Assembly: GCA_036525175.1 (NCBI GenBank)
Contig: DATDAX010000076.1
Location: 1-56,194 of the forward strand
From: Terrimicrobiaceae bacterium
GTDB taxonomy: Bacteria > Verrucomicrobiota > Verrucomicrobiia > Chthoniobacterales > Terrimicrobiaceae
Reading direction: 5' to 3'
DNA length: 56,194 bases
The notes beneath the pieces were generated by a model. The model ran no database searches. It had not been told where the DNA came from and saw nothing but the letters and a program-made list of their open reading frames with translations. Every line of letters begins with the position of its first letter. Within the stretch, counting starts at the first letter, position 1. This document shows, piece after piece, positions 7,893-56,194 of this stretch. A program made the position numbers and the translations under genes.

Positions 7893-7930
7893 TGCAAACC
7901 ATACTATCCATAACGAACGAGGGTCCTCGA

Positions 7931-9592: not shown

Positions 9593-9597
9593 GAGCT

Positions 9598-10980: not shown

Positions 10981-11123
10981 AACGTAGTAGTCTCTGCGAC
11001 TCCCTTCCGCGACTACGCTTGGTTGGGCGCCGAAGCATTTTTGCGAGGAGAGTGCCTGGCTCGTCGCCTGAAAAATGGCGACGGCCACCACTCCTTGATT
11101 TCCCGTTCGAAGGAGCGACGTCG

Positions 11124-12641: not shown

Positions 12642-12650
12642 GCTACGCCC

Positions 12651-13139
12651 TCAGAAAGGTCCGGCAGGCAGGCTCAAGCCCAACACGCCCGTGAACAGGA
12701 AGAAGGTAACCGTGGATAGCGCTGCCGCTATCCCCAAGTCGCGCCACGGCTTCCGACTGCCGAAGCCACGTGCGACCACCACAAACAGCCCGGTGGAGGC
12801 GATGATGAAGCCCGCCCAGCCGATCAACACCATGTGCAGGATCACGCCCGCGCCGATAACAAAAAATGCCACCCAATCCGGGGCGTCATGCCCTTCCTGG
12901 TCGAGCGGCACGTTGCGCCAGCCACCGGACAGGGCATGCCAGCCCAGAACCGCGCCACACAGGGTAAAGCCGACACCGATGATGTATGGAAAGAGCCGCG
13001 GCCCGACCTGCGCGTAGTCCTGGGTCTCCGCGATGCTCTGGGTGTCATATACAACAAGGGAACCGAGGGCGAAGAGCGCAAGGGATATAAGCAGCTCGCC
13101 TGGACGGATCGGCGATCGTTCTGTATTTCGTTCGGGCAT
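12651..13139 (-). CDS. tctB: Tripartite tricarboxylate transporter small subunit TctB
   Basis: Small four-helix membrane protein between tctC and tctA. The ORF extends to 13292, but the ATG at 13139 (MPERNTERSPIRPGELLISL...) gives a TctB-sized product. The start is uncertain. Confidence 0.7.
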   Translation of the reverse strand: MPERNTERSPIRPGELLISLALFALGSLVVYDTQSIAETQDYAQVGPRLFPYIIGVGFTLCGAVLGWHALSGGWRNVPLDQEGHDAPDWVAFFVIGAGVILHMVLIGWAGFIIASTGLFVVVARGFGSRKPWRDLGIAAALSTVTFFLFTGVLGLSLPAGPF

Positions 13140-13361
13140 CTGAGCCTGGCGGCTGACATCTGGATTGGCAGGCGTCGATTCTTCTGAAACGGGGGCAGTG
13201 GAGGAACCGCGGACGGGGAATCTAGATGTACGCATTTGACGCGGGGGTTGTTCATGAAGATCGCCGAAACCCTGCGTTGCCGCTACCGTCAACGCATGGG
13301 ATCGTGGTTCCGAGTGTTAGACTTGGATCGACTCGCGCTGGTAGCGCCTTGGAGCCTCGCG

Positions 13362-13460
13362 CTGGTAGGGCGCGCTGGCTCAGCGCGCCTTCCCTCTCCT
13401 CTCTCTCTCCTCCTCCTCTCTCTCTCCTCCAAGGCGCGCTGAGCCAGCGCGCCCTACCAG
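13362..13460. repeat. Perfect 30-bp inverted repeat enclosing a 39-nt homopyrimidine (mRNA-sense homopurine) loop, between tctC and tctB
   Basis: The left arm ctggtagggcgcgctggctcagcgcgcctt (13362-13391) is the exact reverse complement of the right arm at 13431-13460. The loop at 13392-13430 contains only C and T. Confidence 0.95.
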
Positions 13461-13468
13461 CAGCGGGA

Positions 13469-14452
13469 CTATTTTTTAGCCAGGCCCAGGTCTTCCATGA
13501 CTTTTCCGATTCGGGCCTGATCGCCATCGAGAAAAGCCTTGAATTGATCTCCCGCCAGGAACAGGTCAGTCCAATTATTCCGTTCCAGCGTCTGCTGCCA
13601 GGATGGCGTCTTGACTGCCTTTTCCACTATGGCGATGAGTTCATGTTTCTGCGCATCGGTAATGCCGGGCGCCGCGAATACGGCGCGCCAGTTGACCATC
13701 TCGACGTCCACCCCTTGTTCCTTGAGCGTGGGAATATCGACGCTGGGAATCCGCTTGTCGCCCGAGACGGCGAGGGCGCGTAGTTTTCCCGACTTGATCT
13801 GGCCGGCGAATTCACCGTAGCCGCTGATGCCTGCCGCCACATGGCCGCCCATGATCGCCGCTTGCGCTTCGCCGCCGCCGGCATAGGCGATGTAGTTGAT
13901 CCTGGTGGGTTCCACGCCCACGGCCCGGGCGATCAACGCCGCCAGGATGTGATCCGATCCACCAGCAGAACCGCCGCCCCACGCCACCCTGCCGGGATTG
14001 GCCTTGAATTGGGCGATCAGTTCCTCCATCGACTGGATCTTTGAGCTGCCTGGCACCACTACGACTTCGTATTCCCCCACCAGGCGCGCGATCGGCGTGA
14101 CATGGGACAGATTGATGGGCGATTTGTGAGAATGGATCGCCCCTACCATGACCATTCCACCAATCATCAGCGCCTTGGGGTTACCCTTGTTGGAGTTGAC
14201 AAACTGGGCAAGCCCGATGGTGCCACCGGCGCCACCTCTATTATCTACGGTGATTTTCTTGACGACGTTGCCGCTTTGGAGAGCGGCCTGCAAGGCGCGC
14301 CCTGTCTGGTCCCAACCTCCACCCGGTGCAGCCGGAACCAGAATCTTCAAGCTGTCGATGGCCAGAGCCTGGTGCGCGATGGAAAGACTCAGCATGAGTG
14401 CCGTAGCTGTGAGTGTTAGGGTACGAATGGATTTCAGGCGCGAGACTTTCAT
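13469..14452 (-). CDS. tctC: Tripartite tricarboxylate transporter substrate-binding protein TctC (Bug family)
   Basis: Has a signal peptide (MKVSRLKSIRTLTLTATALMLSLSIAHQALA) and Bug-family motifs (VDNRGGAGGTIG, INYIAYAGGGEA). Confidence 0.9.
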   Translation of the reverse strand: MKVSRLKSIRTLTLTATALMLSLSIAHQALAIDSLKILVPAAPGGGWDQTGRALQAALQSGNVVKKITVDNRGGAGGTIGLAQFVNSNKGNPKALMIGGMVMVGAIHSHKSPINLSHVTPIARLVGEYEVVVVPGSSKIQSMEELIAQFKANPGRVAWGGGSAGGSDHILAALIARAVGVEPTRINYIAYAGGGEAQAAIMGGHVAAGISGYGEFAGQIKSGKLRALAVSGDKRIPSVDIPTLKEQGVDVEMVNWRAVFAAPGITDAQKHELIAIVEKAVKTPSWQQTLERNNWTDLFLAGDQFKAFLDGDQARIGKVMEDLGLAKK

Positions 14453-14456
14453 ACCT

Positions 14457-14760
14457 TAGAATTTCACGGTGGCATTGAGTGAGAATACATCAACCGCGTT
14501 CATATCGGCTATGGCCGCTCCCTGCGTGGCCTGCCCGCCGACCAGGTTGTCTCGCAGCTTGCCGAGCTTGAACGACACATCGCCCGGAGCGGTATGATCG
14601 CGAGATCTCGAGTTTCACCTGAAACACCCTGCAAATCGGTGAACGGGTTCGAGTTGAGCGCACCGCTCACGTCAGCTGCATTATAGACCATGAATCGCGG
14701 CGCAAGAGTGTTGATGAGGAGCGTCGATCAAGGCGCAAGAGTGAATCCACCAACGTGCAA
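14457..14760 (-). pseudogene. Frameshifted fragment of an outer-membrane beta-barrel (porin-like) gene
   Basis: On the minus strand, two frames read ...FMVYNAADVSGALNSNPFTDLQGVSGE and ...DVSFKLGKLRDNLVGGQATQGAAIADMNAVDVFSLNATVKF*. The second ends with a typical terminal aromatic residue. No intact ORF spans the two. Confidence 0.35.
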
Positions 14761-14867
14761 GGGGCGACATCGTCAGAGTCAAGTTTGACAACAGACCTCG
14801 CTGGGTGTCGCCAGGATAGCCCAACGGTTGTTCAGATTCGCGCGTGTCGCGTCAAGCGGAGCGATCA

Positions 14868-16214
14868 TCAGAAGTTTACACGGAAATGCACGCCCAGGAC
14901 GGTGGCATTGTCCACGACACCGGCGCCGCCGGGCCGGATCACGTATTCAACAAACGGCTGGACGTAGGCCCATTTGTTGAGCTGAATTCGGTAGTCGCAT
15001 TCCAGCAGGGCTTCGTAAGTTTGAACGGGAAGATTGTTCGCTTCCTGGATGGTTTGATTGTCTTCGCTGAAATTGCCGTATGCAAAGGCCACTCCAACTT
15101 GATCCCGGTCGCGGGAGGGAATCAGACCTTTGTAGATCAGCCCCGTGTTGAAATAGAATGGTCTCAGGCCGTTGTAGCTCGGCGCATAGTGGAACCACGA
15201 AAACCAGGTCAGGCCTTGGTCGCTGAGCTTGGGTTTCGTCGCAGCCGCGGTCGCCTTAAAGGATTTCGCGTCTCCGCTTTTCTCCTGCACAGTGGGCGCC
15301 GACGGTTCGCGCCAGAGCATCTGCGCCGCCTGCCAGTAAAAACCGTATTTCCCGGGATTGGTGTCGCCGTTGAACGACTCGTTCTCGATCCCCCAGTAAT
15401 AGCCACCGAAGACGTATTTGCCGGGAAGCTTTGCCGGCCCCAGCTTGGGCGTCACGCCTGTCTCGCCAATGAACCACAAGCCGTTGTGGCCGGGCGAGCC
15501 GTCGAAATCCAGCCCGCGGTTCCCCGTTCCGGTGCCATCGGGAAACGCCATGTACAAGCCTGCCATTGCGTAATACCAGTCCGTCGGTTTGACTTTCACA
15601 TACCCTCCCCACGCCGCATAACTCGACGACCACTCAACATCATTGGCGCTGATTCCCTTATTGTCGATGATGCCGTTGTTGCGGAAAAACTTCGATTCGG
15701 GCTGTTGTGCAAAAATATCGTTGGGATTCTGCCATCCACCCGAGATGGTTAAGAACTCCTTTTTGCCAAATAGCTCCGGTGTCGTGTAGGTCAGATAGAA
15801 GGGCATGAGGCGCCACCCATGGCCACTTCGATAGCTCACCGGACTGAACAGGCTTGTCGTCCCGATGAATGGATTAATGAGCTCGCCGTCACGCCAGCGC
15901 CCGCCGGCGGAAAAGGTGAGACCCTCCAGCGCGTCCCATCCGCTGAGCTTGGCAAAGTCAACGTCGAGCTCGAAAAGGACTTGCTCAACAAAGGTGCCGC
16001 GGTGTTCAAGCCCGCCCGCGACCGCGCCGGCAAATACGCTGGACCAATGCCCGGAAAAATCGATACCCCGGTCCTCGAGCGTCGGGCGGACACCAAACAG
16101 GTCACCCGCGGCCCCTTTTCCCTTCCACCATCCTTCGAGGGACTGGGTTTCGGCCCGCAGCAGAGAGAATGAAAACGTCAGGAAACCAAAAGTAAAACGA
16201 AAGAGCTTGTTCAT
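14868..16214 (-). CDS. Carbohydrate-selective porin, OprB family
   Basis: Has a signal peptide (MNKLFRFTFGFLTFSFSLLRA), the OprB-like N-terminal LFG.RP.L...GI.F motif, alternating beta-strand sequence and a C-terminal ...VHFRVNF. Confidence 0.82.
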   Translation of the reverse strand: MNKLFRFTFGFLTFSFSLLRAETQSLEGWWKGKGAAGDLFGVRPTLEDRGIDFSGHWSSVFAGAVAGGLEHRGTFVEQVLFELDVDFAKLSGWDALEGLTFSAGGRWRDGELINPFIGTTSLFSPVSYRSGHGWRLMPFYLTYTTPELFGKKEFLTISGGWQNPNDIFAQQPESKFFRNNGIIDNKGISANDVEWSSSYAAWGGYVKVKPTDWYYAMAGLYMAFPDGTGTGNRGLDFDGSPGHNGLWFIGETGVTPKLGPAKLPGKYVFGGYYWGIENESFNGDTNPGKYGFYWQAAQMLWREPSAPTVQEKSGDAKSFKATAAATKPKLSDQGLTWFSWFHYAPSYNGLRPFYFNTGLIYKGLIPSRDRDQVGVAFAYGNFSEDNQTIQEANNLPVQTYEALLECDYRIQLNKWAYVQPFVEYVIRPGGAGVVDNATVLGVHFRVNF

Positions 16215-32907: not shown

Positions 32908-35760
32908 TTATTTCTGCAGGCGGGTCTTTTGCGGCATCGTACCTGGACCGTAACGACTCCATTCGTCAGATGTCAGATCGCTCGCCACTTTGGCAGAGGT
33001 CTCGCGGAGGACACCATCAAGAGTGATTGGATGAAGGGTGGGCTCGGGAAAACCGTTCTGCCACCTGTAAGTCAGAATATACCTTCCATCCAGGCTGAAA
33101 CCCGCGAAACGATCACCCCGCGCGACTGGAACTTTGAAGTTTACTCCGAGCGTGTTCGCGTCATAGACGTAGATGACGCTGGGGAATGCGGCAGCTAGGA
33201 GCGTTCCGTCCGGACTAAAACTCAAGAAGTCGTCACGGTCGCCCTCCATGAATCCGCCAAAACCCAGCGGTTCCGATCGGACCGTTGGATTCTTTGCGCC
33301 GATTTTCCAAATCCCAATCATGTTCTCCTGGAGCACCGCGCATCGCCCTTTGTCAGGACTAATCGCGAAGTTCGATCCTTCTGGAATGTCTGACACGGAT
33401 TCGGTCCTCCAATCGAACAGCACGGACTTAAGCGGGACCCCATCCTGGATTTGCTCGGCGATGACGAAGTTGGACCCGGACAGGAACCACAATCGGTTGA
33501 AAGGCTTTACGTTGGGGATCAGCTGCGGGGGTGCCTTATGATCCAGTCGATAGATCTGGGACGAAACCAGCACCCGATTTTCGTCCGGCCCAAACGCCAG
33601 GGGCCCGCCGCCGGGAATCGTGATGTTTCGTTTGGTGGCCATTTCCGTTATTACCCATCCCTTGCGTTGTAAAAGCCGCGCTACAAAGCGGCCGCTCGGT
33701 GACACCACAAGCGCTCCGGCGCCTTCCCCTTTTTCCTCAGCCTGCCACAGGCGTGTTCCACCCGCATCATAGACATTCATCGAGCCGTCTGCTCCATCCA
33801 CCACAACGACACGCGCGTCCACTGGCAGGACCGCAAACTTGCTGGGCAACGTCCAACGGCTCGCCGGGGTAATGGGGACCCATCGTTCCGGGGCGAGCGA
33901 CACAACCTGAATCTTGGCGGGAAGCCGATCCCTGGTCTGGGCTGGGACACGCGAGCTCACGGCCAGGAATCGACCATCGGCACTGAAAGCGGCGCCATTC
34001 ACCGACTGCCTTTTATCGAGTGTGAAGTGGAACACCAAGGCGCTCCGAGTCAGGTCGAAGACCGAAAAGGTCTCCGGGTTTACCGCGGAGTATCCCGCAA
34101 CATACCGGCCAGTTGGACTCACGGCAGGGAGAAGCTGAAAGGTCTCGCCTTGCTTCGATGCGAACGGCAGGTCGAACGAATCCCCACCGGATGTCTTGCG
34201 TAGCTGAGCGCCCCTGACGTACACATCGCCGCCCGCGATGACGCGAGAAGGGTTGGACAAGCTCTCGACAGGCGTGGTGTTAAGCAGGCTGCCATCAGCA
34301 GCGCTTAGAATCGAATGCTGACGAGAACTGATGGCGATCACACACTTGCCATCTCCGCTGAACAAGGCTTCCTCATAATTATCGCTCGCCGGATGCCGAA
34401 CACGCCAGCGAACCGAGCCGTCCGCGACGTTGAAAGCTGTTAAGCCTTCATCGGTTTTCGCGACGACCGTCGCAGCGTCTGGACTGAGCACGACGACGCC
34501 CGCCTCCGACGGGAACATGATGCGCGACCGAACCGTGCCGGCTGTCGGATCGACCGTCCAGATCCCAGCTCGCGAAACCACGAGCAAGTTCCCCTTCAAA
34601 TCGAACGCTGCGATATCGAGATCCTCCGGAAGCGGGACGATTTGTTTGTTTCCGCTCTCGATGTCTAGAACTTCGATCGCAGATCCACCTTTTTGGTAGA
34701 CGACGACACGGTCGCCGGTTGGGCTCATAGCGAGTGTGAAGGCGGATTGATCCGCCTGGACCTCGTGGAGCTGTCGGAGATCGGGCGCTGAAAACACATG
34801 GACATGGCGATCACCGCAGAGCGTAACCAGTCTCCGTGCATCTGGAGTGAACACGATGGCAACTGCGACAGAATCCGTTGCGACATCCGTCAAAATCCTC
34901 GGCATCTGACTGACGGCTGTGTGCCAGGCTGTGTATCCAGCTTCAGTCCACGTCTCTCTGAGCGATTCAGCCGCAAGCAGGCTTCCAATTCGGAGGCCCC
35001 GACTGGGCTCCATGTCTGCGGCCTTGACAGCCTGTCCGGCCAGGAAGCGCGCCGCGGACATCTTGCCTTGCTTGATAGCATCCTGACGCGCAAACCAAGC
35101 GACTACTGATAAAATGACAGCAACGACCAGGCCGAAGCTGAGTGCTCCGAGCGTGATCAACTGCCTTTTAGCGGCGGCCTTGCGGCTGGCGATGATGTAT
35201 TCGGTCTGAAGCGCCGTGGGCTGACGTTCCTTGTCCGTGCCGGCCTCTGCGAGCCATTGCTCGGCATCACGCAGATCGTCTCCGCGAAGGACAAAGCTGT
35301 TGTTTTTGGCTTTGGCCTCCCACTCGACGGCACGCGTGAGGAGGCGCGTGTGAGCCCGGACCCAGTCGATGTCCGTGTCGAGGGCGCTGATCAGCGTCTC
35401 GGTCGCCATTTGAAAATCGTCTGATTCACGAAAAAAGATCCAGTTCAGCTTCGCCAGCGCTTCGGGGACGGCCCCGGCGTTCACCTCGCGTGCAACGATA
35501 GGAATCATCCGTTTGTTCTGCGCCAGGGCATGCGCGATTTCCTTCATGCAAACGACCGATGAGACGGAGTCAGGAGAGAGCACAAAGAGGAACGTGTCTG
35601 TTCCTTCGATCGCGCTGTAAATCGCTCTCATGAACTCCTCGGTCGGCAGAATGCCTTCCCAGTCCACCCAGGCCTCGCGACCGCGGCGTTTCAGCGCCTC
35701 ATCCAACCGTTGGACGAACTCCTTGTCCTTGCGCGAGTAGGAAATGAAAACGTCAGCCAC
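32908..35760 (-). CDS. TIR domain - single TM helix - divergent beta-propeller protein (paralogue B)
   Basis: The first ~220 aa are near-identical to paralogue A (Glu74 codon 35539-35541). The C-terminal ~720 aa have only degenerate propeller blades (FSGDGKCVIA, FSADGRFLAVSS, FSPDGTLLAAA, FSLDGRYILT) and do not align with A. Confidence 0.85.
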   Translation of the reverse strand: MADVFISYSRKDKEFVQRLDEALKRRGREAWVDWEGILPTEEFMRAIYSAIEGTDTFLFVLSPDSVSSVVCMKEIAHALAQNKRMIPIVAREVNAGAVPEALAKLNWIFFRESDDFQMATETLISALDTDIDWVRAHTRLLTRAVEWEAKAKNNSFVLRGDDLRDAEQWLAEAGTDKERQPTALQTEYIIASRKAAAKRQLITLGALSFGLVVAVILSVVAWFARQDAIKQGKMSAARFLAGQAVKAADMEPSRGLRIGSLLAAESLRETWTEAGYTAWHTAVSQMPRILTDVATDSVAVAIVFTPDARRLVTLCGDRHVHVFSAPDLRQLHEVQADQSAFTLAMSPTGDRVVVYQKGGSAIEVLDIESGNKQIVPLPEDLDIAAFDLKGNLLVVSRAGIWTVDPTAGTVRSRIMFPSEAGVVVLSPDAATVVAKTDEGLTAFNVADGSVRWRVRHPASDNYEEALFSGDGKCVIAISSRQHSILSAADGSLLNTTPVESLSNPSRVIAGGDVYVRGAQLRKTSGGDSFDLPFASKQGETFQLLPAVSPTGRYVAGYSAVNPETFSVFDLTRSALVFHFTLDKRQSVNGAAFSADGRFLAVSSRVPAQTRDRLPAKIQVVSLAPERWVPITPASRWTLPSKFAVLPVDARVVVVDGADGSMNVYDAGGTRLWQAEEKGEGAGALVVSPSGRFVARLLQRKGWVITEMATKRNITIPGGGPLAFGPDENRVLVSSQIYRLDHKAPPQLIPNVKPFNRLWFLSGSNFVIAEQIQDGVPLKSVLFDWRTESVSDIPEGSNFAISPDKGRCAVLQENMIGIWKIGAKNPTVRSEPLGFGGFMEGDRDDFLSFSPDGTLLAAAFPSVIYVYDANTLGVNFKVPVARGDRFAGFSLDGRYILTYRWQNGFPEPTLHPITLDGVLRETSAKVASDLTSDEWSRYGPGTMPQKTRLQK

Positions 35761-36164: not shown

Positions 36165-36956
36165 TTACGCAGCAGCTCCCCGAATGAGGCGTTCCAACCT
36201 TGCCGTGAGTTTCTCAAAATGTGTTCCAGACCAGTAAATCCGACCGCAGCCGCAGCACCGGCGGAAATTATCGTAAAAGCGCAAAGTGAGCGGTTCGCCA
36301 GAAAGCCGGGTGAGCACTTCTGACTTCGGCACGGATAGCAGCAATGAGTTGCAGCGGAGACATCGCTGATAGGGCGCAAGGTCGCCGGACTCGGGAGCGA
36401 GGCCGAAACGTCGGAGCACCTCGCGCGCTTGTTCCTCCGCATCCACGCTGCGAGGGCTGTAACCGTGCCGGACGATGGAATGCATCAGCAGGCGGCGATC
36501 GCGAGTCAGCAGCGCGCGATCTTCCGCGACCATGATTTCGAGTAACCGACGATCGTCGGCGTCGCGCTCATAGGCAGTATCAATCCCAAGCAGCCGTAGG
36601 TTGCGCGCGAGTTTGCCGAGGTGACCATCGGCCACGAACCGACACCAATGCTTCGTCTGCAACCTCGGTGCCCGCGGCAGAACCTCTGCTGGTGCAGGAA
36701 CGGCGAAGACTTCCACCCGCCCAGGAGCCTGCACCTGCCAGGCAAAGGTGACCGCTGTCCGCTCGCCGGTGCAAAGATCCGTCGCAACGATCAGATCCAC
36801 CTCCGGGTGCGGCACCCCACACGCCTCAATCACATCCTTGATCGCCGTCTTTTCCCACAACGCACGCAAGAGGCAATTCTCGCTGCGCAAGCCCCGCACC
36901 CCACGACGTAGGAAAAACCCGAGTTCAGCGGAAAAGCTGAGTTCCACCTCAAACAT
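36165..36956 (-). CDS. Mut7-C RNase domain protein (PIN-like nuclease with N-terminal ubiquitin-like domain and C-terminal zinc ribbon)
   Basis: Contains RFVADGHLGKLARNLRLLGIDT...LLTRDRRLL and a terminal C.RCN...CCGCGRIYW.G.H, which matches the PF01927-type layout as I recall it. Confidence 0.75.
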   Translation of the reverse strand: MFEVELSFSAELGFFLRRGVRGLRSENCLLRALWEKTAIKDVIEACGVPHPEVDLIVATDLCTGERTAVTFAWQVQAPGRVEVFAVPAPAEVLPRAPRLQTKHWCRFVADGHLGKLARNLRLLGIDTAYERDADDRRLLEIMVAEDRALLTRDRRLLMHSIVRHGYSPRSVDAEEQAREVLRRFGLAPESGDLAPYQRCLRCNSLLLSVPKSEVLTRLSGEPLTLRFYDNFRRCCGCGRIYWSGTHFEKLTARLERLIRGAAA

Positions 36957-43596: not shown

Positions 43597-43815
43597 CTAA
43601 AGCGAAGCTGCTTTACTCTTGGTGCCTGTATCAGAGTCGGGCGCGGCCCCACTTGCCTTAGCCAATTCTTCTTCCAGAACCTGGATCGCGCCGCTGATGC
43701 GCAGCATGGTGCTGCGCAGATTATTGGCTTGGCCTTCAATCTCAGCCAACTTCTTCTGCCCGGCCTCGAATTCCGCTTTCAAATCCTGCAATCTGTTCGT
43801 CAGTTGTTCCTGCAT
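43597..43815 (-). CDS. Small (72 aa) coiled-coil protein, unknown function
   Basis: Heptad-like sequence (LQDLKAEFEAGQKKLAEIEGQANNLRSTMLRISGAIQVLEEEL). An AGGGA lies about 6 nt before the ATG. No family assignment. Confidence 0.45.
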   Translation of the reverse strand: MQEQLTNRLQDLKAEFEAGQKKLAEIEGQANNLRSTMLRISGAIQVLEEELAKASGAAPDSDTGTKSKAASL

Positions 43816-44746: not shown

Positions 44747-47700
44747 ATGAGTAACGTCCTTCTGGTTCCGATGCACCTGGATGCCCTCTGTCTCAAAACT
44801 GATCTGTCCGTTGTCGAGGCAAAGGTCGATTTTTCCCGGATGCCCTACTGGGATGGGACACGCGAAATCAACCACGATGTCGCCAACATCAGTGAAGAAC
44901 TCCTCGCTCGCCCCTTTGAAGACCGTGGGCTGCAGCTCAAGGCGGGTGTTCACCTCCATTGGGCGCTGCCGGATGCCCTAACCAAAGGCGTGATTGCGGA
45001 AAACTGCACGAGCTTCTCGGCTGTCCCCAACCGCTGGCTGGTCACCAGAAGCAGGCTAGATGAAGATGGGAAGGAGCGTCTGGAGCGCCAGTGGATTGTT
45101 GAGAGCGATTATCTCTATCCTGATGACGTAGGCGCGCTGTCAGGCAGTATCGCGATTCCTTTTCCTGCCGAGAAAGACCACCCGCCGTTCCGCTACCTGG
45201 GGCGCAAAATGTCTTTCAACGCCTGGACAGAAGCCACCGCAGAGGGCGCGACAGGGAAATATCTCGGCGCGTTGGGGTATCAACTGACGGCCCTTGGATA
45301 TCAGCATAAAGCACTGCATACCATGGCGACGGCGCCAGGTCGCGGCTATGCTGAGCCCACTTTTGCGGCCTTTTACCCCAATTGTCAGAGTGTCTTCGGC
45401 TTTCATGATGCCGATCCCCCGGCAACGTTACGGGGCGTACAGTACGACGTCATGGGTTGGTACAGCGATCCCACCCAAGACTGTCTGCGAGCCATAGAAA
45501 CTCTGATACAGGAGCGCGCAAAGATCACGAAGGAAGCCCTCACCCTCAAGGCAGCCCTCCAGGAAGTCTATCAATGGGACATGACGGCGGACGCCCAAGC
45601 GCATATCATTCCGGACTCAACGGTGTGTTATGCCCGCCTCACCATCGAGACGGGCACCCCGCCCTCTTGTGTACGTCAGGACAAACCCGTGACGATTGCG
45701 GTAGGGAATACGAGCACCCAGGCGCTGTCAGCCTATATGGCCCATACGCTGGCCCCAGCGCTGAAGATGAGCCCGTCACGTCTCGAGGAACAGTTGGAAG
45801 CGCTCCATCTCGCCTCGCGGTTAGGCGCCAGGAAATTGGACATCGGACCAAAATTCGAGGAAGCGCGACACGAACGAGGGTTTACGGCGGTGCCGGCCGG
45901 CACCCTATGGACCATTCGTCAGGTAAGCGCCAGCCCCCACCCCCCCGATGCCACCGGAGACACCCCGCAAGAAACGCTTCCCGACGAGCTGGCACACTCG
46001 CTGAACGCCCTGAATCTTGTGCAGATGGCCTATGACCAGGCCGGCCACGATCTGGAGTCGATGCAGAAGCAACTCTTTGCCGACTGGTATAAATACATGC
46101 TGTGTGCCTATCCTCCCGATGACACCAGGGATGATTATCCGGACATTGATGAGGTGCGCTATTTCATCGAAAAAAATGATCTCGTGCCGATCACGCGCCA
46201 ACAGGGGAAACGCCAGGTGTTGCGATCGCAATGCCGGCGACTGCATGCACAGGTCGCGGCAAAGGTCCAAGAGTATCAGGAGCGGACGAAGAAACCCTAT
46301 GCATTGCAACCACGCCCGGCACCCCGCTACTGGCGACCGCATGAACCCGTGCTGCTTATCGTGGATGAGGAGATACCGCCGACCACACGCCATGGGCAGG
46401 ACGGGCGCTTGCATCCGGAGGGCTTGCTCACATGTCACGTGCAGTCCGTCAACGCCGCTGACATCAAAACACAGCTTGCTGCTCTCCGGGAGACCATAGG
46501 CACACTCCCGCTGAAGTTGGGAGAGGATGCCATCGGCTGGCACACCTGGACGGAGCAACCCTGGCATCCCTTTATCCTGGAATGGCGTGTGGAGCTAAGT
46601 CCCCTGGACGAGAAGAACAACCTGGACGCAAAGAAGCGAGCGTATGCCCCGGACTTCATTACCAGCAGTTATCAGTTGGAGGAAGACGCCGTCGACCTCG
46701 TTCTCAAGCCGGGCAAGGCGGCCGTCGAAAAGGCCGCGAGTACGTTCACCGGCAGCAGCCTGCTCACGCCACATGCCAAATTCCAGTTACAGAAGCAAAT
46801 CAAAGCGTTTTTGGCCCGAACAGGACGACAGGATGATGACCCGGTCACGCAAGCGATCCAGAAAGTGTCCCAAAAGCTCGACAGCCCCAGCTTCCACGCG
46901 GTCGCGCAATCACTGAATGGCTTCAACGAAGCCCTGCTGATGCACAAGCAAACCTTGCAATTGCCCATTGCCGACCCCTTGGGGTTTGAGGAGGCGCAGG
47001 ATTTTACCAAGGCAGTACACGATGCTGTAGGGCCAAGCAATCGCAGCGCCCCCCAACCGCAAAACGATTTCCACCCGATCCGCACCGGAGTCCTGAAGAT
47101 TCATGCGCTACGTGTAGTCGATACCTTCGGCCGCGTGCAAAATCTGACCTTGCACGACGACAAGGTGATGGCCACCGAGATCATGACCACCCCCGCGAAT
47201 CCGCATTTGGTCTTGTTGCCACCGCGTCTGGCGCAACCGGCTCGCCTCAACTTCCGCTGGCTGGCGGCAGACCGCGGGGCTACCTCAGCCGACGATGAGC
47301 CGGAGATGAATGCCCATCCGGCGACCACCCCAGTGTGTGGCTGGTTGCTGCCGAACAATCTCGACAACAGCCTGATGGTGTACGACAACACCGGTCAGGC
47401 ATTAGGTTCCATAAGCGCGCGCGAGCGCAGATGGATACCGGCGCCGGGGACGTCGATCCTGCCGAATGCGCAGTGGAACGTGCACCTTAGGACGCTCGTC
47501 ACCCATGTGCTCCGCATGCCCGACCCATTTTTAGAGGATTTTCTGACCGGCATCGAGGTCGCGCTCGAACGCATCGACCCGGAAAACTTCGCTCAACACG
47601 AGGCCCTGGCGCTGCTCATGGGCCGGCCGATGGCGGTCGTCCGCGCGGTGGTCAACCTGGAATTGCGCGGCCAACCAGCCATTAATCAGCACTGGAACGT

Positions 47701-48526
47701 GTTTCGGACCGATATGGAGCGCGATCTGCAAGGCGAACTGACACAGCCTGGCGGCGGGCGGAACCAACCGGCCCAACGAGAAACCGATGCTGTCGGCGGG
47801 GTACGCTTTCCCATCCGCCTCGGCGACGATCGGCAGTTAAATGATGGGCTGGTCGGTTATTGGAAAGAGCAGTGGTCCAAAGATAGTGAGACGTACTCGT
47901 ATGAGAAGAACCGCTTCTATGTGCATGCGTGCGACAGTGCCGAGGTGTGCAAGATGGACCTCAGCAAACTGCCGCTAACCGCCAAGCAGAAGGACGATGT
48001 TGCTGATTTGTTGCGCCACGGACCGATGGTCAAGAAACACGACTTCGTGGCACGCCTTGCCGAGGGGGAGAGCATATGGACCTTGCTTTGTGAGAAGAAT
48101 GTGATCCGCGAAGTCGAGCGCAACCGGTACATCCACTACGCCGCGGATACGCCCGACCTCGCCCAGGCCATTGCCGACCCGCCGCAAAAGCTCACGATGC
48201 TGGTGGACCCGCGCGGTGTCGTGCATGCGACATGTGGCATTCTGCCCACGAAAGCGCTTGGCATTCCGCCCGATCAATATGCCAAGGCTTTACAGACCCT
48301 AGCCATCACCTTTCTCTCCGCTCCCATCCTCACTGGCGTGGGGGATAAGGTGCGCCTGCCGGTGCCGACGGAACCGGGTTATGTCTGGTCCTGGCTTGAA
48401 AAGCAACAGGGCGCCTGGTCCGAAAGCGCGCCCATCGGGCCGATGCCACTGGAGGCCACGTTTGCCGAAGCCCAGGCGATACGGGAAGGCTGGTTGAAAT
48501 TGACCAAAACACGGGAGGAAATATGA
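44747..48526 (+). CDS. 1259-aa orphan protein (no family recognised)
   Basis: Long uninterrupted ORF with protein-like composition and no signal peptide. Its stop overlaps the next gene's start (ATATGA at 48521-48526). Confidence 0.85.
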   Translation: MSNVLLVPMHLDALCLKTDLSVVEAKVDFSRMPYWDGTREINHDVANISEELLARPFEDRGLQLKAGVHLHWALPDALTKGVIAENCTSFSAVPNRWLVTRSRLDEDGKERLERQWIVESDYLYPDDVGALSGSIAIPFPAEKDHPPFRYLGRKMSFNAWTEATAEGATGKYLGALGYQLTALGYQHKALHTMATAPGRGYAEPTFAAFYPNCQSVFGFHDADPPATLRGVQYDVMGWYSDPTQDCLRAIETLIQERAKITKEALTLKAALQEVYQWDMTADAQAHIIPDSTVCYARLTIETGTPPSCVRQDKPVTIAVGNTSTQALSAYMAHTLAPALKMSPSRLEEQLEALHLASRLGARKLDIGPKFEEARHERGFTAVPAGTLWTIRQVSASPHPPDATGDTPQETLPDELAHSLNALNLVQMAYDQAGHDLESMQKQLFADWYKYMLCAYPPDDTRDDYPDIDEVRYFIEKNDLVPITRQQGKRQVLRSQCRRLHAQVAAKVQEYQERTKKPYALQPRPAPRYWRPHEPVLLIVDEEIPPTTRHGQDGRLHPEGLLTCHVQSVNAADIKTQLAALRETIGTLPLKLGEDAIGWHTWTEQPWHPFILEWRVELSPLDEKNNLDAKKRAYAPDFITSSYQLEEDAVDLVLKPGKAAVEKAASTFTGSSLLTPHAKFQLQKQIKAFLARTGRQDDDPVTQAIQKVSQKLDSPSFHAVAQSLNGFNEALLMHKQTLQLPIADPLGFEEAQDFTKAVHDAVGPSNRSAPQPQNDFHPIRTGVLKIHALRVVDTFGRVQNLTLHDDKVMATEIMTTPANPHLVLLPPRLAQPARLNFRWLAADRGATSADDEPEMNAHPATTPVCGWLLPNNLDNSLMVYDNTGQALGSISARERRWIPAPGTSILPNAQWNVHLRTLVTHVLRMPDPFLEDFLTGIEVALERIDPENFAQHEALALLMGRPMAVVRAVVNLELRGQPAINQHWNVFRTDMERDLQGELTQPGGGRNQPAQRETDAVGGVRFPIRLGDDRQLNDGLVGYWKEQWSKDSETYSYEKNRFYVHACDSAEVCKMDLSKLPLTAKQKDDVADLLRHGPMVKKHDFVARLAEGESIWTLLCEKNVIREVERNRYIHYAADTPDLAQAIADPPQKLTMLVDPRGVVHATCGILPTKALGIPPDQYAKALQTLAITFLSAPILTGVGDKVRLPVPTEPGYVWSWLEKQQGAWSESAPIGPMPLEATFAEAQAIREGWLKLTKTREEI

Positions 48527-51500
48527 GTACTGAGTTAGTACTTCACCTGGAACTCAATGGCTTCGAAGTCATAGACAAGGAGGAAATCGTCAAGGATGTG
48601 TCTCGCAAGCACCACGTAGGGACAGTGCACGGGCGTGTTGATATCGTTGCGGATGATACGTTCGGTGCGTGTGCCAGCTTTGATGGGAACGCCAGTAATC
48701 ATATAAGCATTCCCTCTGACAACTCCTTGAAGAACTCTGGCGATGTCACCGTTGAAGCGTGGGTGTACGTGAGCCAGGAGGCGTCTGGCTACTTCAGGGT
48801 CGTTGGCCGTGGGGGCTATCCGCAAGATTATAGCTTGTGGTGCGTCCAAGGCGGCGGGTGGTTATTTCAACGGTACGCGAGCATTCCACCTGGCAGTCCT
48901 CCTCCACCCACTGCTTCCGCTGCTGAGTGGCTTAACTGGACCATGAATCCTCAAGTCGTCAATGCGTCCTGCCAAATGGATTCGCCAACAAGGGCTTTGA
49001 ATACCTGGTACCACCTGGCAGGTGTGATTGAAGGGACGAAGGGCTCGCTCTACCTTCACGACCTGCAGGGAAAATGCATTGGATACAAAGAAGTACACGA
49101 TATGCCTTCGGGCCCGGCATTCGACACCGACGGGCCTCTCACGATCGGATATGGCCCCGGCCTGGACTTTCCTGCGCATACCGGCAGAATAGCCCACATC
49201 CGTGTCTATAACGGCGCCCGCTCCCAGGCGGAGATCGAACAGGGTATTGCCAGGGACCGCCTGGCGTTGGTGCCGTTCCGCAAAAGTCATCCGATTGATT
49301 TCCATCTGTACGACGATGACGACCAGGCGGTGCTGTACATCAGTGACGATCCGGCCGGGCACAACCTGCACCTGGAACTGCACAATACCTCGGCGCAGGT
49401 CATTCAATTGCACAACGGCCACGGCGCAGTAGCTTCGGAGGCCAATCACCATTTCGCCGTGCGCTTCCGTCCGGGCACGTTGTCCGACAGCACGCTCAAG
49501 GCGCTGGTCAACCCCCAGGAGCGGGGAAAAATCCTACAGCAGACCGAGCAATGGGAGGTATACTTCCCGCCCACACTGCCGGCAGCGAATGAGGCCGCCG
49601 CGCTGTACTTGCTCTATAAAGGACCGGCGAAAACCATCCAACCGGACGAGCGCCGCACGTTGACGCTGCAGCGAATGAGCGCCGCCCCGGGAAGCGGCGC
49701 GCGCGGCACGCAGGTGGAACTCCTGCCACATCAATTGACCGCTGCTGGCGGTGATGCCACACCGATTACCGGCAGCCGGACGCAATACGTACACATCACG
49801 AATCAACGCGGCCACAAGAACATCCCGTTGCATGTCTGGTTCGAGGGCGGCAACACTGTAGTGAATGATGGCGTCTCATCCACGCCCCTCACCTTGTGTA
49901 TCGGAAATGCTTCCGCCGATAGGGACATCACCCTGGACGCGACATCGCAATTCCTGATCTCATTTGATGTGGGGGACGGAGCAGATGCAGCGTGGACAAT
50001 GACACCGCATGAAAGCGAAGTGCACGTCAGGTATGAGCAGACAGAGCTACCATCAAAGCTTGCCGGGCAGGGCATAAGTAGACAATGGTCATTGAAGTTT
50101 CCTCTGGGGAAGGTCCTTCCGAAACGTGGTAGTGCAGGCACAGGACCTCTGAAAATTACGATAGAAGGCATTCGAACCTCCCCGCAGGCGTCCGGCCATG
50201 CGAATCTTTACGTGCAGTATGACCACATCCCTGGCTATCAGGACGGGCGGTTTATTCTGACGGTCGAAAAGAGCCCGCTCGTGTATGACAAAAAGGGAAA
50301 CGTGGCCATTGGCAAGCCCATCCAGAAGGTGGACATCCCAAAGGTCGATGTCGCCGGTACCGTCGTTGCCGACAGGCTTTCCGTCTCCCGGGATAACGCA
50401 CACCGCGGCGGGTTGTTTTTCGCCGGAGCGGGCGATTTCAATCATGCCCTCTACAACAATCACTCCAATCTGGATGGAGAAGGAACCTGGGATGGGGCGA
50501 AGTGGAATACATTCAAGGGGTTGAACATCCGGGTTGGAAATCGAAATGACAAACCATCAACCCTGCGATCGGCGCTTCTTATTGATGCCACAGGTCATGT
50601 CGGCATCGGGACGCCGACCCCCAAAAGCACCCTCTCCGTCGCCGGAGGGCTCGCGGTGGGGGCTACCTATGCTGAAACGAATGCCGCCCCAGCGAACAGC
50701 CTCATTGTGCAGGGTACCCTCGGCATCGGGACGCCGCAGCCGCAGGCAAAGCTGGAGATCGCCGGGGAGGCCACGGGGAACACCCCCTTGTTGATAGTCA
50801 GAAAAGGCGCGGCCAACTACCTGACCATATCCAATGATGGCAACGTCGGCATCGGGACGACAGACCCGAAGGCGGCTCTACAGATTGGGAATTTTGAGTC
50901 CGAGGATACATATCTCAAGGTTGCTGCTGGGCGCCTCCATCGAGCAGGCATCCAGTTCGAGTGCGGGCAACACAATGAATACTTCATTGAGTTTGAATCC
51001 GGGGGGCCATTCCGACCCGGGCTGCAATTCACCAAACATCGGCCCGACTACCCCAATGTGCCCAGGGTCGATTTTTTTCTGGATGGCGAGACCGGCAACG
51101 TCGGAATCGGGACACCACTGCCTGAGAAGAGGTTGGAGGTCCTCGCGGGCGAACTACGAGTGACGGCAAGACACAACAATCCAACCGCGGATATTGGAGC
51201 GTTTTACGACCCGCGTAAAGCCCGAGGGATCGGCATTGGCTATAACCAGATTGCATCGATTGGCAGTGATCTCAGTCAAGACATTCTCATGGTGCCGAAA
51301 GGACAAGGCATAGTACGTATAAAGGGACCTTTGGAGGTAAACGGAACTTTTCGGGTAAACGGCTTGCCAATATTCGACTATGGCAAGCGAATGAACCAGG
51401 ATGAACAAAAAAAATACGCGCGAATGTTAAAGGAGCCAACTTACCAACCGGGCACCTTCATTTTGTTCGTCCGGGACGACAAAAGCGATGACATTTGCTG

Positions 51501-51570
51501 CCTGGTGAAGAAATCGCACAATGAAGTGCGTCTCCTAAGCTTTTACTGCTCCGGCAACGATAATATATGA
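48523..51570 (+). CDS. LamG (concanavalin-A-like lectin) domain protein with C-terminal fibre-like G-x-[VL]-G-I-G-T repeats
   Basis: The N-terminus has FDG....I.IP......GDVTVEAWV...WYHLAGV..G..GSLYLHD...GRIAHIRVYNGARSQAEIEQ (Laminin_G_3 pattern). The C-terminal half has GHVGIGTPTPKSTLSV, GTLGIGTPQPQAKLEI, GNVGIGTTDPKAALQI and GNVGIGTPLPEKRLEV. Confidence 0.82.
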   Translation: MSTELVLHLELNGFEVIDKEEIVKDVSRKHHVGTVHGRVDIVADDTFGACASFDGNASNHISIPSDNSLKNSGDVTVEAWVYVSQEASGYFRVVGRGGYPQDYSLWCVQGGGWLFQRYASIPPGSPPPPTASAAEWLNWTMNPQVVNASCQMDSPTRALNTWYHLAGVIEGTKGSLYLHDLQGKCIGYKEVHDMPSGPAFDTDGPLTIGYGPGLDFPAHTGRIAHIRVYNGARSQAEIEQGIARDRLALVPFRKSHPIDFHLYDDDDQAVLYISDDPAGHNLHLELHNTSAQVIQLHNGHGAVASEANHHFAVRFRPGTLSDSTLKALVNPQERGKILQQTEQWEVYFPPTLPAANEAAALYLLYKGPAKTIQPDERRTLTLQRMSAAPGSGARGTQVELLPHQLTAAGGDATPITGSRTQYVHITNQRGHKNIPLHVWFEGGNTVVNDGVSSTPLTLCIGNASADRDITLDATSQFLISFDVGDGADAAWTMTPHESEVHVRYEQTELPSKLAGQGISRQWSLKFPLGKVLPKRGSAGTGPLKITIEGIRTSPQASGHANLYVQYDHIPGYQDGRFILTVEKSPLVYDKKGNVAIGKPIQKVDIPKVDVAGTVVADRLSVSRDNAHRGGLFFAGAGDFNHALYNNHSNLDGEGTWDGAKWNTFKGLNIRVGNRNDKPSTLRSALLIDATGHVGIGTPTPKSTLSVAGGLAVGATYAETNAAPANSLIVQGTLGIGTPQPQAKLEIAGEATGNTPLLIVRKGAANYLTISNDGNVGIGTTDPKAALQIGNFESEDTYLKVAAGRLHRAGIQFECGQHNEYFIEFESGGPFRPGLQFTKHRPDYPNVPRVDFFLDGETGNVGIGTPLPEKRLEVLAGELRVTARHNNPTADIGAFYDPRKARGIGIGYNQIASIGSDLSQDILMVPKGQGIVRIKGPLEVNGTFRVNGLPIFDYGKRMNQDEQKKYARMLKEPTYQPGTFILFVRDDKSDDICCLVKKSHNEVRLLSFYCSGNDNI

Positions 51571-51628
51571 TTAGGGATCGAGCACAGGCAATGAAGTCAG
51601 GGCCAAAGCGGCGCTCAGCGCCTGACCC

Positions 51629-51710
51629 GAATGGCGCTAAGATAAGCGAGCTTTGGGAGGAAATTCCTCAGTGTGACGGATCGAAAACGGCCCTTATCTT
51701 AGCGCCATTC
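51629..51710. repeat. 18-bp perfect inverted repeat (46-nt spacer) bracketed by an 11-bp direct repeat
   Basis: gaatggcgctaagataag (51629-51646) is the reverse complement of cttatcttagcgccattc (51693-51710). gcgcctgaccc occurs at 51618-51628 and again at 51711-51721. Confidence 0.9.
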
Positions 51711-51766
51711 GCGCCTGACCCCATTGTGGTGAGGCACCTGTGTTATCTCAACGATAAGGATTAACT

Positions 51767-53428
51767 ATGTACCACCCATTGGTCCATCTTTTAGATCTAT
51801 GCACTTTCTCCTATCAATTGCATAGCCAGACGCTGATCTGGCCTATGGATCCTTATTATGATCAGTTGTCAGGAGAATCAGATAGTCTCCGAAACAGTTT
51901 CATGGCCAAGGTGCACCAGGTGGCTACTCCGTCCAACTACCCTGGATTGCGTGGTCCTAATAGCCTCAATAGTTCGCCGACATCGAACCGAGAACTGGAT
52001 CCGATCATTTCCGATTATTCCCAAATCAACCCATGGCGCCCAAGTCTTACAAGACCTAACAGGGAAGTAGAAGGGTGGATTTTGTACAATACGCCTCGAG
52101 AGATTACTGACCGGATTAATAAAGTCTCTATGGTTCGCTATGATCCCGCATGGAACCCCTTACTCTACGAAATACAAGCTCCACGACCAGCATCAGTACC
52201 AGCAGGGAGAGACTTGTTGTACTGCTTTGAGGGAGGAACCGGAGGTATTCTACGAAACGATAAGGCACCAGCATGGAGCATGATGGGGTTGGTGTTAGCG
52301 AGGGAGGATGACACCGCCCCAGTCCCGCCTGCCCACCGCCCGTATGACTTATACATTGTATTTCGGGGAAGTCGCAGTGGTGACCCAAGGGCAATAACAG
52401 CATTGAGGACAGAACGCGGCAATCCCGACTGGGTAACGGACATGGACTTCGGATTCGGCAGTGGCATGGTCACAAATATTCCGGAAATTAGCGCGATAGG
52501 TAGTGTTAGTCCCGGGTTTGCGGCCAGCGTGCATACAATGCTGCCCACCATCATGGAATGTCTAGAGGGTATTCAGGCGGAAAAAAAGTACGCACCTAGG
52601 ACGATTTATGTCACCGGGCATAGTCTGGGAGCGGCACTGGCGGTGCATTTTACCAGTTCAGTACTGCTGGGCACGACGTATGGTCATAATAGCATTCCAA
52701 CGAGCATGCCAGCGAGTATCCAAAAGTGGCCATGGAGTACCATACAGTTGGTTCCGTTTGCCTTGCCTGTTGTTGGAGGCAAGACCTTTCAGCAGGCTTT
52801 TGACATAACGCTAGCAAGTCGCCGAGTCTATCTTACGGGGGACCCTGTCACGCAAACCACGAGACTGTATCCAGTGGGTATTGAGTATGAAATTATCCCG
52901 GAAGATTTCATGGATGTCTCAAGAAGAGGTCTAGCCGTTAGTGCTCTTCGTCATGAACCTTATAACATACGTTATTATTTAATCAAAGACTTACAGAAAC
53001 TAGGATTTCTGCCTAAGCATTTGCCCGCCGGGCCTCTTACTCAGGAGCCCTGGAAAATCTTTAAAACTTTCAAGGATGTGTTAGCGGAACCATGGGATGG
53101 GAATGCGAATGGTCAGGTCAGTCAGATCCTTGGAATGAAGTTCAATGACCGACTTATACAATATTTAGACGTTCTTGAGGTCATTGGGAAGCGCGATAGC
53201 CAGAGACAATACATAAGCAAGCTGCGTATGGCGATCTTGAACGCCAACATCCAAGGGTTTGATCCGTCGATTCATCCTTTATATTACGAACCTAAGCAAC
53301 TGTTCACATCTGAGCTCGCTCAATTTTTCGGTTTGTGCCTTTTTTTAACTCAGGCCACAAAGGAGACGTATGCAAAAATGGTTAAATTATTGACGATAAT
53401 GCCATACAATGGCCTTCCATTGCAATAA
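51767..53428 (+). CDS. Class-3 lipase family (alpha/beta hydrolase) protein
   Basis: Contains LYIVFRGSRS and YVTGHSLGAALAV (Ser codon 52622-52624). Has no signal peptide and is markedly more AT-rich than the surrounding genes. Confidence 0.82.
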   Translation: MYHPLVHLLDLCTFSYQLHSQTLIWPMDPYYDQLSGESDSLRNSFMAKVHQVATPSNYPGLRGPNSLNSSPTSNRELDPIISDYSQINPWRPSLTRPNREVEGWILYNTPREITDRINKVSMVRYDPAWNPLLYEIQAPRPASVPAGRDLLYCFEGGTGGILRNDKAPAWSMMGLVLAREDDTAPVPPAHRPYDLYIVFRGSRSGDPRAITALRTERGNPDWVTDMDFGFGSGMVTNIPEISAIGSVSPGFAASVHTMLPTIMECLEGIQAEKKYAPRTIYVTGHSLGAALAVHFTSSVLLGTTYGHNSIPTSMPASIQKWPWSTIQLVPFALPVVGGKTFQQAFDITLASRRVYLTGDPVTQTTRLYPVGIEYEIIPEDFMDVSRRGLAVSALRHEPYNIRYYLIKDLQKLGFLPKHLPAGPLTQEPWKIFKTFKDVLAEPWDGNANGQVSQILGMKFNDRLIQYLDVLEVIGKRDSQRQYISKLRMAILNANIQGFDPSIHPLYYEPKQLFTSELAQFFGLCLFLTQATKETYAKMVKLLTIMPYNGLPLQ

Positions 53429-53600
53429 TGAGAACAAAGAAACTACAGTTCAAGCGTGCTATTGTTCTGTACCTATGGGTAAACATCCAGTTTGAGCACG
53501 ATTCCTGGGAGCTGGTGCATGGATAGCGCGCATAACCATGTGGCGTACCAGTACGTGTGCAGGTGCGCATGAAGGACATCTCCTGCCAAAAGGCTACGCA

Positions 53601-56194: not shown

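Follow-up and report, generated by a model that had tools for sequence, protein, structure and literature searches.

The distal part of contig DATDAX010000076.1 (positions 44747 to 56194), originating from a Terrimicrobiaceae bacterium (assembly GCA_036525175.1), carries four large co-directional genes with which a horizontally mobile cassette of five genes begins, in the order A-B-X-D-E. The window, i.e., the whole stretch of DNA that was analyzed, is the entire 56,194-bp contig, so that the fourth open reading frame (ORF4) is cut by the contig end. The cassette was defined here as co-directional homologues of A, B, D, and E together with an enzyme gene (X) located between B and D. Its products may well constitute a new mobile conflict machine, namely, a toxin-delivery complex with a swappable payload, a reading regarded as possible, if not quite probable. 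Its basis is the pattern of a scaffold that stays constant while the binding tip and the enzyme vary, which we infer to be the signature of biological-conflict machinery.

A previous, sequence-only reading of the region had described four ORFs of 1259, 1015, 553, and at least 864 amino acids (aa), the first two being coupled through an ATGA overlap at 48523–48526, and these were recovered as described. Since each of them has many homologues occurring in the same order in other genomes, the four ORFs are regarded as real genes and not as chance ORFs. The features of the region, with positions in nucleotides (nt) of the window, are as follows:

44747–48526, plus strand: gene A (ORF1), 1259 aa, from the ORF listing
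48523–48526, plus strand: ATGA overlap of the A stop and the B start, read from the sequence, translational coupling
48523–51570, plus strand: gene B (ORF2), 1015 aa, with a LamG fold, a conserved centre, and a variable fibre-like C-terminal part
48688–49236, plus strand: LamG part of B (Pfam Laminin_G_3)
50542–51153, plus strand: phage-tail-fibre-like repeat region of B (PHROG families and motifs)
51618–51721, no strand assigned: insertion between B and X resembling a miniature inverted-repeat transposable element (MITE), recognized from inverted and direct repeats
51767–53428, plus strand: gene X (ORF3), 553 aa, class-3 lipase-like serine hydrolase in the enzyme slot
53601–56194, plus strand: gene D (ORF4), a DUF6603 protein of which the N-terminal 864 aa are present before the contig ends
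53601–54500, plus strand: residues 1–300 of D, a lineage-restricted variable module (matches in six loci only)
approximately 56076, plus strand: onset of the DUF6603 domain in D (weak Pfam onset)
43597–43815, minus strand: small coiled-coil-like ORF of 72 aa (ORF listing, translation, and relatives)

The frame of ORF4 is open from 53496 to the window end, and the ATG at 53601, yielding 864 aa, corresponds to residue 1 of two 84%-identical relatives (L006 and L007).

Conservation and spread of the cassette

The closest relative (L009, 95% ORF1 identity) encodes A (1259 aa), B (994 aa, with LamG), a lipase (570 aa), D (1565 aa, with DUF6603), and E (758 aa), and also features the 4-nt overlap between A (end at 4751) and B (start at 4748). 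The same order A-B-lipase-D-E was present in a second locus with 78% ORF1 identity (L010), and metagenome contigs with 84% ORF4 identity comprised the end of B, the lipase gene, D, and E. In the latter contigs, E is 774–778 aa long and overlaps D by 4 nt; the size of E across relatives is approximately 700–775 aa, and in the window it lies beyond the contig end. The order A, B, X, and D of the window agrees with the cassette definition, E being seen in the relatives with 95% (A) and 84% (D) identity. Accordingly, the four-gene unit proposed by the sequence-only reading has to be extended by a fifth, translationally coupled gene. It was also observed that the lipase gene and D are split into several ORFs in L010 (16640–23168), reflecting either pseudogenisation or long-read assembly errors.

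Beyond these close relatives, the arrangement A-B-X-D was detected in Microcystis aeruginosa, Kouleothrix, and three other assemblies; in two of these, E or a large next gene begins where the locus ends. Scanning one genome per GTDB species with the D alignment yielded at least 438 D loci, 80 of which were kept for locus analysis. These 80 loci originate from Cyanobacteria, Chloroflexi, KSB1, Bacteroidota, Verrucomicrobiota, Planctomycetes, Acidobacteriota, Actinomycetota, Alpha-, Beta-, and Gammaproteobacteria, Desulfobulbia, and Spirochaetes. Profile searches of six-frame ORFs in the 56 loci with enough flanking sequence recovered A, D, and E together in 55 and A, B, D, and E in 47 cases; the gene order was ABDE or ABCDE in 44 loci and DEA(B) in four, and a B-family hidden Markov model (HMM) detected a divergent B in most of the remaining ‘ADE’ loci. 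The compact form D-E-A was found on megaplasmids of Streptomyces, Embleya, and Paenibacillus. The sequence-only reading had made its proposal depend on co-occurrence of the genes outside this genome, and the gene order was indeed kept far beyond it.

Among the fetched loci, neither the sequence preceding A nor that following E contained a recurring gene family. The proteins A, B, D, and E are unrelated to each other, paralogy having been rejected with all hhalign probabilities below 2%. Herpetosiphon aurantiacus DSM 785 (CP000875) harbors two complete A-B-X-D-E copies (L020 and L072, at 2.42 and 2.45 Mb) approximately 28 kb apart.

Core proteins, recognition module, and enzyme slot

ORF1 and ORF4 had previously been regarded as orphans, which did not hold for either of them. 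For ORF1 (residues 1–1200), an exhaustive HMMER search against 1.84 billion cluster representatives (50% identity) returned 3,324 relatives at E ≤ 1e-3, of which 1,649 also reached E ≤ 1e-30; those carrying a name, from Microcystis, Okeania, Hapalosiphon, Kouleothrix, and Blastocatellia, are all annotated as ‘hypothetical protein’. Identity of ORF1 to most members of the gene A alignment amounts to 48–60%, and across phyla to about 45–60% over 1,200 aa; the 63 aligned sequences feature a mean column identity of 40% with approximately 90 invariant columns. ORF1 had no match in Pfam. The AlphaFold2 model of residues 1–1200, computed from the 63-sequence alignment, reached a mean predicted local distance difference test score (pLDDT) of 80.7 and a predicted template modelling score of 0.80, with 969 of the 1,200 residues at pLDDT 70 or above; it consists of beta-rich regions and two helices of approximately 45 residues (413–454 and 467–514). 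Comparison of this model by Foldseek gave no match in the PDB (best E 0.49, template modelling score below 0.1) and none in BFVD. Gene A thus encodes a giant, strongly conserved core protein, for which a confident model is available that resembles no known fold. D and E are likewise large, strongly conserved core proteins, and all three are predicted to be soluble.

Several proteins of the A family (P0061, P0080, P0132, P0103, and others) contain large insertions at fixed positions (HMM positions of approximately 85, 141, 240–260, 460–496, 686–715, 907–916, and 1045). In one homologue, a WD40 propeller is inserted at approximately 460–496, between or within the two long helices, and the longest A homologue noted comprises 4,246 aa.

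ORF4, the second presumed orphan, represents a DUF6603 protein. The truncated copy in the window scores only 14.2 bits against DUF6603 (PF20248; E 0.017, gathering threshold 27 bits), the domain being cut after 38 residues. In a full-length relative of 1530 aa with 84% identity, the domain is located at residues 822–1339 with 455.6 bits (E 2.5e-136), and membership of ORF4 in the family is considered safe on the grounds of this homology. Full-length D proteins of close relatives are 1530–1565 aa long. ORF4 appears to be composed of two parts differing in distribution, since residues 301–864 match 91 loci and residues 1–300 only six; in one locus, the latter module is a separate gene. Covariation of the D N-terminus with the type of X was considered but not supported, as the lipase locus of a Synechococcus does not contain the module of residues 1–300. 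A single-sequence AlphaFold prediction of ORF4 was unusable (pLDDT 34.7).

Gene E of the proteobacterial type is homologous to its Gram-positive counterpart (E 3e-33). Four loci, i.e., L067, L070, and L046 from Actinobacteria and L068 from Rhodocyclaceae, carry an in-frame fusion of D and E, which in L070 forms a stop-free frame of approximately 2,450 codons (7655–15004). Translational coupling and fusion in some lineages suggest that D and E probably belong to one assembly, and the fusion may be taken as a Rosetta-stone hint at an interaction between the two proteins.

For gene B, the LamG domain noticed in the sequence-only reading was verified: residues 56–238 of ORF2 match Laminin_G_3 of Pfam with 59.8 bits (E 4.5e-16, above the gathering score of 27.6), and the domain is also present in the B proteins of relatives. 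A second module, at residues 674–805, resembles phage tail fibres (phrog_9942 with E 2.2e-12, furthermore phrog_18345 and phrog_3269); these matches are local only and range from E 2e-12 to 2e-6. Four G-[IVL]-G-T-x-x-P motifs (residues 694, 734, 776, and 861) lie inside the hypervariable end of the protein. A single-sequence HMM of ORF2 matched 68 ORFs on the fetched loci, and the B-family HMM recovered 77 loci; the N-terminal 650 aa were found in 68 loci and the C-terminal 365 aa in only 25. A match to the Bd2133 fibre in the PDB searches (E 0.72) was not accepted as evidence. Taken together, B combines a LamG lectin domain with a phage-tail-fibre-like, fast-diverging C-terminal end.

The enzyme of the window, ORF3, matches Lipase_3 of Pfam at residues 212–365 with 48.6 bits (E 1e-12, above the gathering score of 22) and contains the GHSLG motif described previously, with S286 encoded at 52622–52624. 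The motifs GHS286LG and GD359P are invariant in five homologues and RH396EP is kept in all four full-length ones, the roles of D359 and H396 in the triad being assigned by motif position only. The predicted triad S286, D359, and H396 is also kept in the 35%-identical homologue of a Synechococcus. ORF3 is therefore a class-3 lipase-like protein with an apparently intact Ser-Asp-His triad. Its N-terminal 210 aa and C-terminal 150 aa occur in this cassette lineage only, and no significant relative was found among PDB sequences.

The lipase had been assumed to be a defining part of the system. Instead, the slot between B and D, spanning 1–5 kb, holds many families at the BLAST level. Among 52 X-slot proteins, Pfam assigned 12 to Lactamase_B, four to Exo_endo_phos, three to Peptidase_S8, two to GNAT, and two to Lipase_3 (this window and a Synechococcus), with Anthrax_toxA, HNH, DUF4135, and Methyltransf_28 occurring once each; the remainder received no Pfam assignment. 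A protein with a PLD domain is present in the Paenibacillus polymyxa locus. X is thus best described as an exchangeable enzyme, with the lipase representing one option among many. A docking module common to the different X proteins was looked for but not found, since jackhmmer searches starting from ORF3 recovered only the Synechococcus lipase. In two loci (L011 of Microcystis aeruginosa, CP046973, 17318–21730, and L015), genes of the Uma2 family and nucleotidyltransferase genes (NTP_transf_2/Polbeta) are situated inside the operon between B and D and look like toxin-antitoxin modules.

Base composition sets the lipase gene apart. The guanine-plus-cytosine (GC) fraction is 0.589 for ORF1 (0.692 at third codon positions, GC3), 0.56 for ORF2, 0.478 for ORF3 (GC3 0.486), and 0.556 for ORF4; ORF3 alone is compositionally odd, in support of an exchangeable slot, and the impression that the whole block is foreign was not borne out.

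Comparison with the closest relative L009 at the protein level revealed a valley of identity in the middle of the cassette, with 95% for A, 85% for B 1–650, 72% for B 651–1015, 66% for X, 72% for D 1–300, and 93% for D 301–864. Compared to L007, X and D are 83–85% identical and the B C-terminus only 44%. Likewise, the number of loci matched among all those fetched was 81 for ORF1 and 91 for D 301–864, as opposed to 25 for the B C-terminus, seven for X, and six for D 1–300. The identity drop and the locus counts indicate that the fibre end of B, X, and the N-terminus of D change fast and recombine, whereas the cassette is rigid elsewhere. This valley resembles an arms-race signature and is taken as support for conflict machinery.

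Proposed function and competing explanations

In the proposed mechanism, the cassette would build a large multi-protein complex carrying the X enzyme as its payload, with A, D, and E serving as carrier and translocation scaffold and the variable fibre end of B steering the complex to the surface of a target cell. At the locus studied here, the payload would attack target membranes through lipolysis, hydrolysing membrane lipids. Release from the producer would not depend on a classical signal peptide and could proceed, e.g., through lysis or some other route. The complex would act as a non-contractile toxin-delivery machine, following a logic like that of Tc toxins, extracellular contractile injection systems (eCIS), and umbrella particles without homology to them.

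Toxin delivery is favoured because LamG and tail-fibre-like modules are surface-recognition devices, and because several of the slot enzymes are of exported-toxin types (class-3 lipase, EF/ExoY-like cyclase, and exonuclease-endonuclease-phosphatase (EEP) domain). Class-3 lipases are the family to which the effectors Tle2/TseL of the type VI secretion system (T6SS) belong, and EF/ExoY-type cyclases as well as EEP domains are typical of exported toxins. Furthermore, no immunity-sized ORF is located between X and D in the window, and the lack of an immunity gene with X fits a sequestered payload or a non-self target.

Several observations weigh against this reading. Neither a signal peptide nor a transmembrane segment, a secretion gene, or a lysis gene was found in or beside the cassette, which makes export a matter of pure inference and represents the main weakness of the proposal. 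The sequence-only reading had already stated that N-terminal signal peptides are missing, and this agrees with a crude Kyte-Doolittle test, in which no 19-residue window reaching a mean of 1.6 occurred in any of the proteins; within the limits of this test, the low values fit with the lack of signal peptides and transmembrane segments. In addition, the commonest type of X, the metallo-beta-lactamase (MBL) fold, resembles the anti-phage effector domains of LmuA, the MBL associated with defence-associated reverse transcriptases (DRT), and Avs1a. Defence-like genes are present nearby in the window (TIR-WD40 and Mut7-C) and in L010, and the conservation of A across phyla is unusually high and would rather be expected of an enzyme or an intracellular machine than of a particle exposed at the surface.

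These points lead to the main rival, a cytoplasmic anti-phage defence of the abortive-infection type, in which A, D, and E would form a sensor assembly, B would recognise a variable phage component, and X would be the swappable effector damaging the infected cell, here by degrading membrane lipid. All proteins are predicted to be soluble and devoid of export signals, as this explanation would have it, one architecture works in monoderm and diderm phyla alike, and defence systems typically swap their effectors at a fixed position. Moreover, the MBL-type X proteins match the PADLOC models for LmuA (1e-14), DRT RTasMBL, Avs1a, and PDC-M48B. The genomic surroundings contribute the toxin-antitoxin-type genes (Uma2 and NTP_transf_2) within the Microcystis operon, integrases, IstB, and nSTAND adjoining one locus, the TIR-WD40 gene of the window, and HATPase_c_3 and GIY-YIG genes in L010; the WD40 domain inserted in one A homologue, the carriage on plasmids, and the two copies in Herpetosiphon point in the same direction. 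However, PADLOC models match none of A, B, D, E, and the lipase, and the cassette contains neither an NTPase, a cyclase, or a nuclease sensor nor any other known part of a signalling system. A cytoplasmic sensor would not be expected to include a lectin plus tail-fibre module, Lipase_3 and EF-like cyclase domains belong to the exported-toxin types, and neither A in phage genomes nor A and D in viral contigs were detected. Finally, the flanks are mostly metabolic or unrelated in several loci, contexts being mixed and no flanking family recurring. On balance, an anti-phage function is considered unlikely, yet it is the alternative to be taken most seriously.

A third explanation dispenses with conflict altogether and assumes a hydrolase-carrying scaffold for envelope remodelling, surface attachment, or the breakdown of polymers or nutrients, with LamG binding carbohydrate and X acting as a digestive or modifying enzyme. 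LamG domains are established carbohydrate binders, many of the X enzymes are hydrolases (lipase, subtilase, EEP, and MBL), and the hosts are often filamentous, gliding, or predatory bacteria of soil and water. The proteins lack signal peptides, however, and GNAT, HNH, and the EF-like cyclase among the X enzymes are not digestive; the divergence valley, the patchy distribution, the plasmids, and the multiple copies suggest conflict and horizontal transfer instead of housekeeping. A non-conflict role is accordingly judged improbable.

The tail-fibre-like region in B, the integrases adjoining one locus, and the patchy distribution would also be compatible with an origin from an unrecognised virus or mobile element, of which the cassette would be a structural module or what is left of one after decay. 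However, tblastn of ORF1 against 50,697 phage genomes and pattern scans for A and D in 2.9 million viral contigs found nothing, A, D, and E had no PHROG match, and the flanks of the cassette contained no recurring genes for replication, packaging, or capsids. Strong conservation and intact frames argue against decay, and a viral origin of this kind is regarded as highly improbable.

Returning to toxin delivery, a comparison with characterised systems is instructive, since the sequence-only reading had seen none of the known machines in the region. This was upheld: NCBIfam and PADLOC yielded no significant match for ORF1–4, PADLOC-DB 2.0 matched neither ORF1–4 nor full-length D or E, its only matches being to X proteins of the MBL type in other loci, searches of the PDB by sequence and profile with A, D, E, ORF2, and ORF3 gave nothing significant, and the Pfam matches were confined to LamG, Lipase_3, and a domain of the DUF type. 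Indexed literature on DUF6603 or on the combination of features contained nothing relevant.

Tc (ABC) toxins are, like the cassette, encoded by an operon whose very large products are soluble and lack signal peptides; receptor-binding modules, a variable enzymatic payload, and horizontal spread are further common features. In contrast to them, the A, D, and E profiles match no PDB chain in a set including Tc subunits (D and E being compared by sequence only), A has no Foldseek match, and the payload is a separate gene instead of a C-terminal hypervariable region; no RHS/YD-repeat or Tc-type Pfam domain was reported in the cassette proteins. With eCIS and tailocins (Afp, PVC, and contractile injection systems in general), the cassette shares a fibre protein whose repeats resemble phage tail fibres and whose tip is variable, the location of payload genes within the locus, and the spread over Cyanobacteria, Actinobacteria, Bacteroidota, and Proteobacteria. 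It differs in that Pfam and PHROG models for sheath, tube, baseplate, and spike (VgrG/PAAR) proteins did not match ORF1–4, D, and E, and that neither the genes for these parts nor tail or AAA ATPase genes were found in or beside the cassette. The umbrella particles of Streptomyces (UmbA/B/C) are likewise multi-protein assemblies combining lectin modules with a polymorphic toxin; no homology to them was detected, the cassette toxin is not fused to a coiled-coil stalk, and the cassette is far more widely spread.

Among defence systems, Lamassu (LmuA), Avs, DRT, and cyclic-oligonucleotide-based anti-phage signalling systems (CBASS) also possess a fixed core and a slot with MBL, HNH, protease, or lipid-hydrolase effectors, and the MBL models of the Lamassu LmuA, Avs1a, and DRT systems match MBL-type X proteins; they differ from the cassette in that A, B, D, and E lack PADLOC matches and no SMC, STAND, or cyclase sensor is present. 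With the T6SS effectors Tle2/TseL, ORF3 shares the Lipase_3 domain and the GHSLG nucleophile elbow, in contrast to its lineage-specific ends and the lack of T6SS genes or an adjacent immunity gene in the cassette. Overall, the cassette resembles Tc toxins, eCIS/tailocins, umbrella particles, and effector-swapping defence in its logic, while no search that was run placed it in any of them. On present evidence, which comprises sequence comparisons for D and E and the indexed literature, the system would be categorically new.

It is somewhat doubtful, but conceivable, that the cassette represents a new class of protein machine, unrelated to contractile, Tc, RHS, and secretion-system-dependent toxins, which packages an exchangeable enzyme, delivers it to target cells picked by a hypervariable lectin/fibre subunit, and has spread horizontally through at least a dozen phyla. 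As part of this proposition, gene A would encode a fold without a solved relative. The previous suggestion of an undescribed toxin or defence module is broadly upheld: the concept of a scaffold, a binding fibre, and a lipolytic enzyme acting as a conflict module remains the best reading reached, while the orphan status, the number of genes, and the role of the lipase had to be revised.

If this reading is true, the cassette would represent a widespread, so far unnamed bacterial weapon or immune machine whose core parts resemble nothing characterised, and a function would be assigned to DUF6603 and to two large families without a Pfam model. It could also serve as a new programmable protein-delivery scaffold. 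Being compact (approximately 16–17 kb) and modular in its target-recognition end and its enzyme slot, the cassette is experimentally tractable. Cultured carriers include Herpetosiphon aurantiacus DSM 785, Chitinophaga, Streptomyces clavuligerus, Paenibacillus polymyxa, Tenacibaculum, and Microcystis, the first of these being a genetically described predatory bacterium and thus a convenient experimental host.

Neighbouring genes and minor features of the window

The 1.6-kb spacer preceding gene A, previously described as gene-poor, is not devoid of genes, as it holds the 72-aa minus-strand ORF (43597–43815), which is conserved in relatives and located approximately 930 nt upstream of gene A. 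Its region is 91.5% identical at the nucleotide level to L009 (29–545) and 94.7% identical to L010 (9415–9604), and small minus-strand genes are called at the matching stretches of both loci. This nucleotide identity of 91–95% was observed although the A protein of L010 is only 78% identical. The ORF may be an accessory or regulatory cassette gene in this lineage, its membership being uncertain.

The MITE-like insertion between B and X is approximately 100 nt long and consists of a perfect 19-nt inverted repeat (51628–51646 and 51693–51711) flanked by GCGCCTGACCC direct repeats. It occurs once in the window, is not present in the relatives L009, L007, and L006, and is probably incidental to the cassette. 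Scans of the window for Rfam families, tRNAs, promoters, and terminators gave nothing above background.

At a distance of 9–12 kb upstream of the cassette, two possible conflict-system genes were noted on the minus strand, encoding a 950-aa TIR-WD40/beta-propeller protein (32908–35760) and a Mut7-C RNase with a ubiquitin-like domain (36165–36956); these genes are not linked to the cassette in other genomes. The window furthermore contains OprB, TctC, and AbrB-family genes, as well as a gene for a TctA permease (11124–12641, minus strand) that is approximately 70% identical to copies on Azospirillum, Microvirga, and Ensifer replicons.

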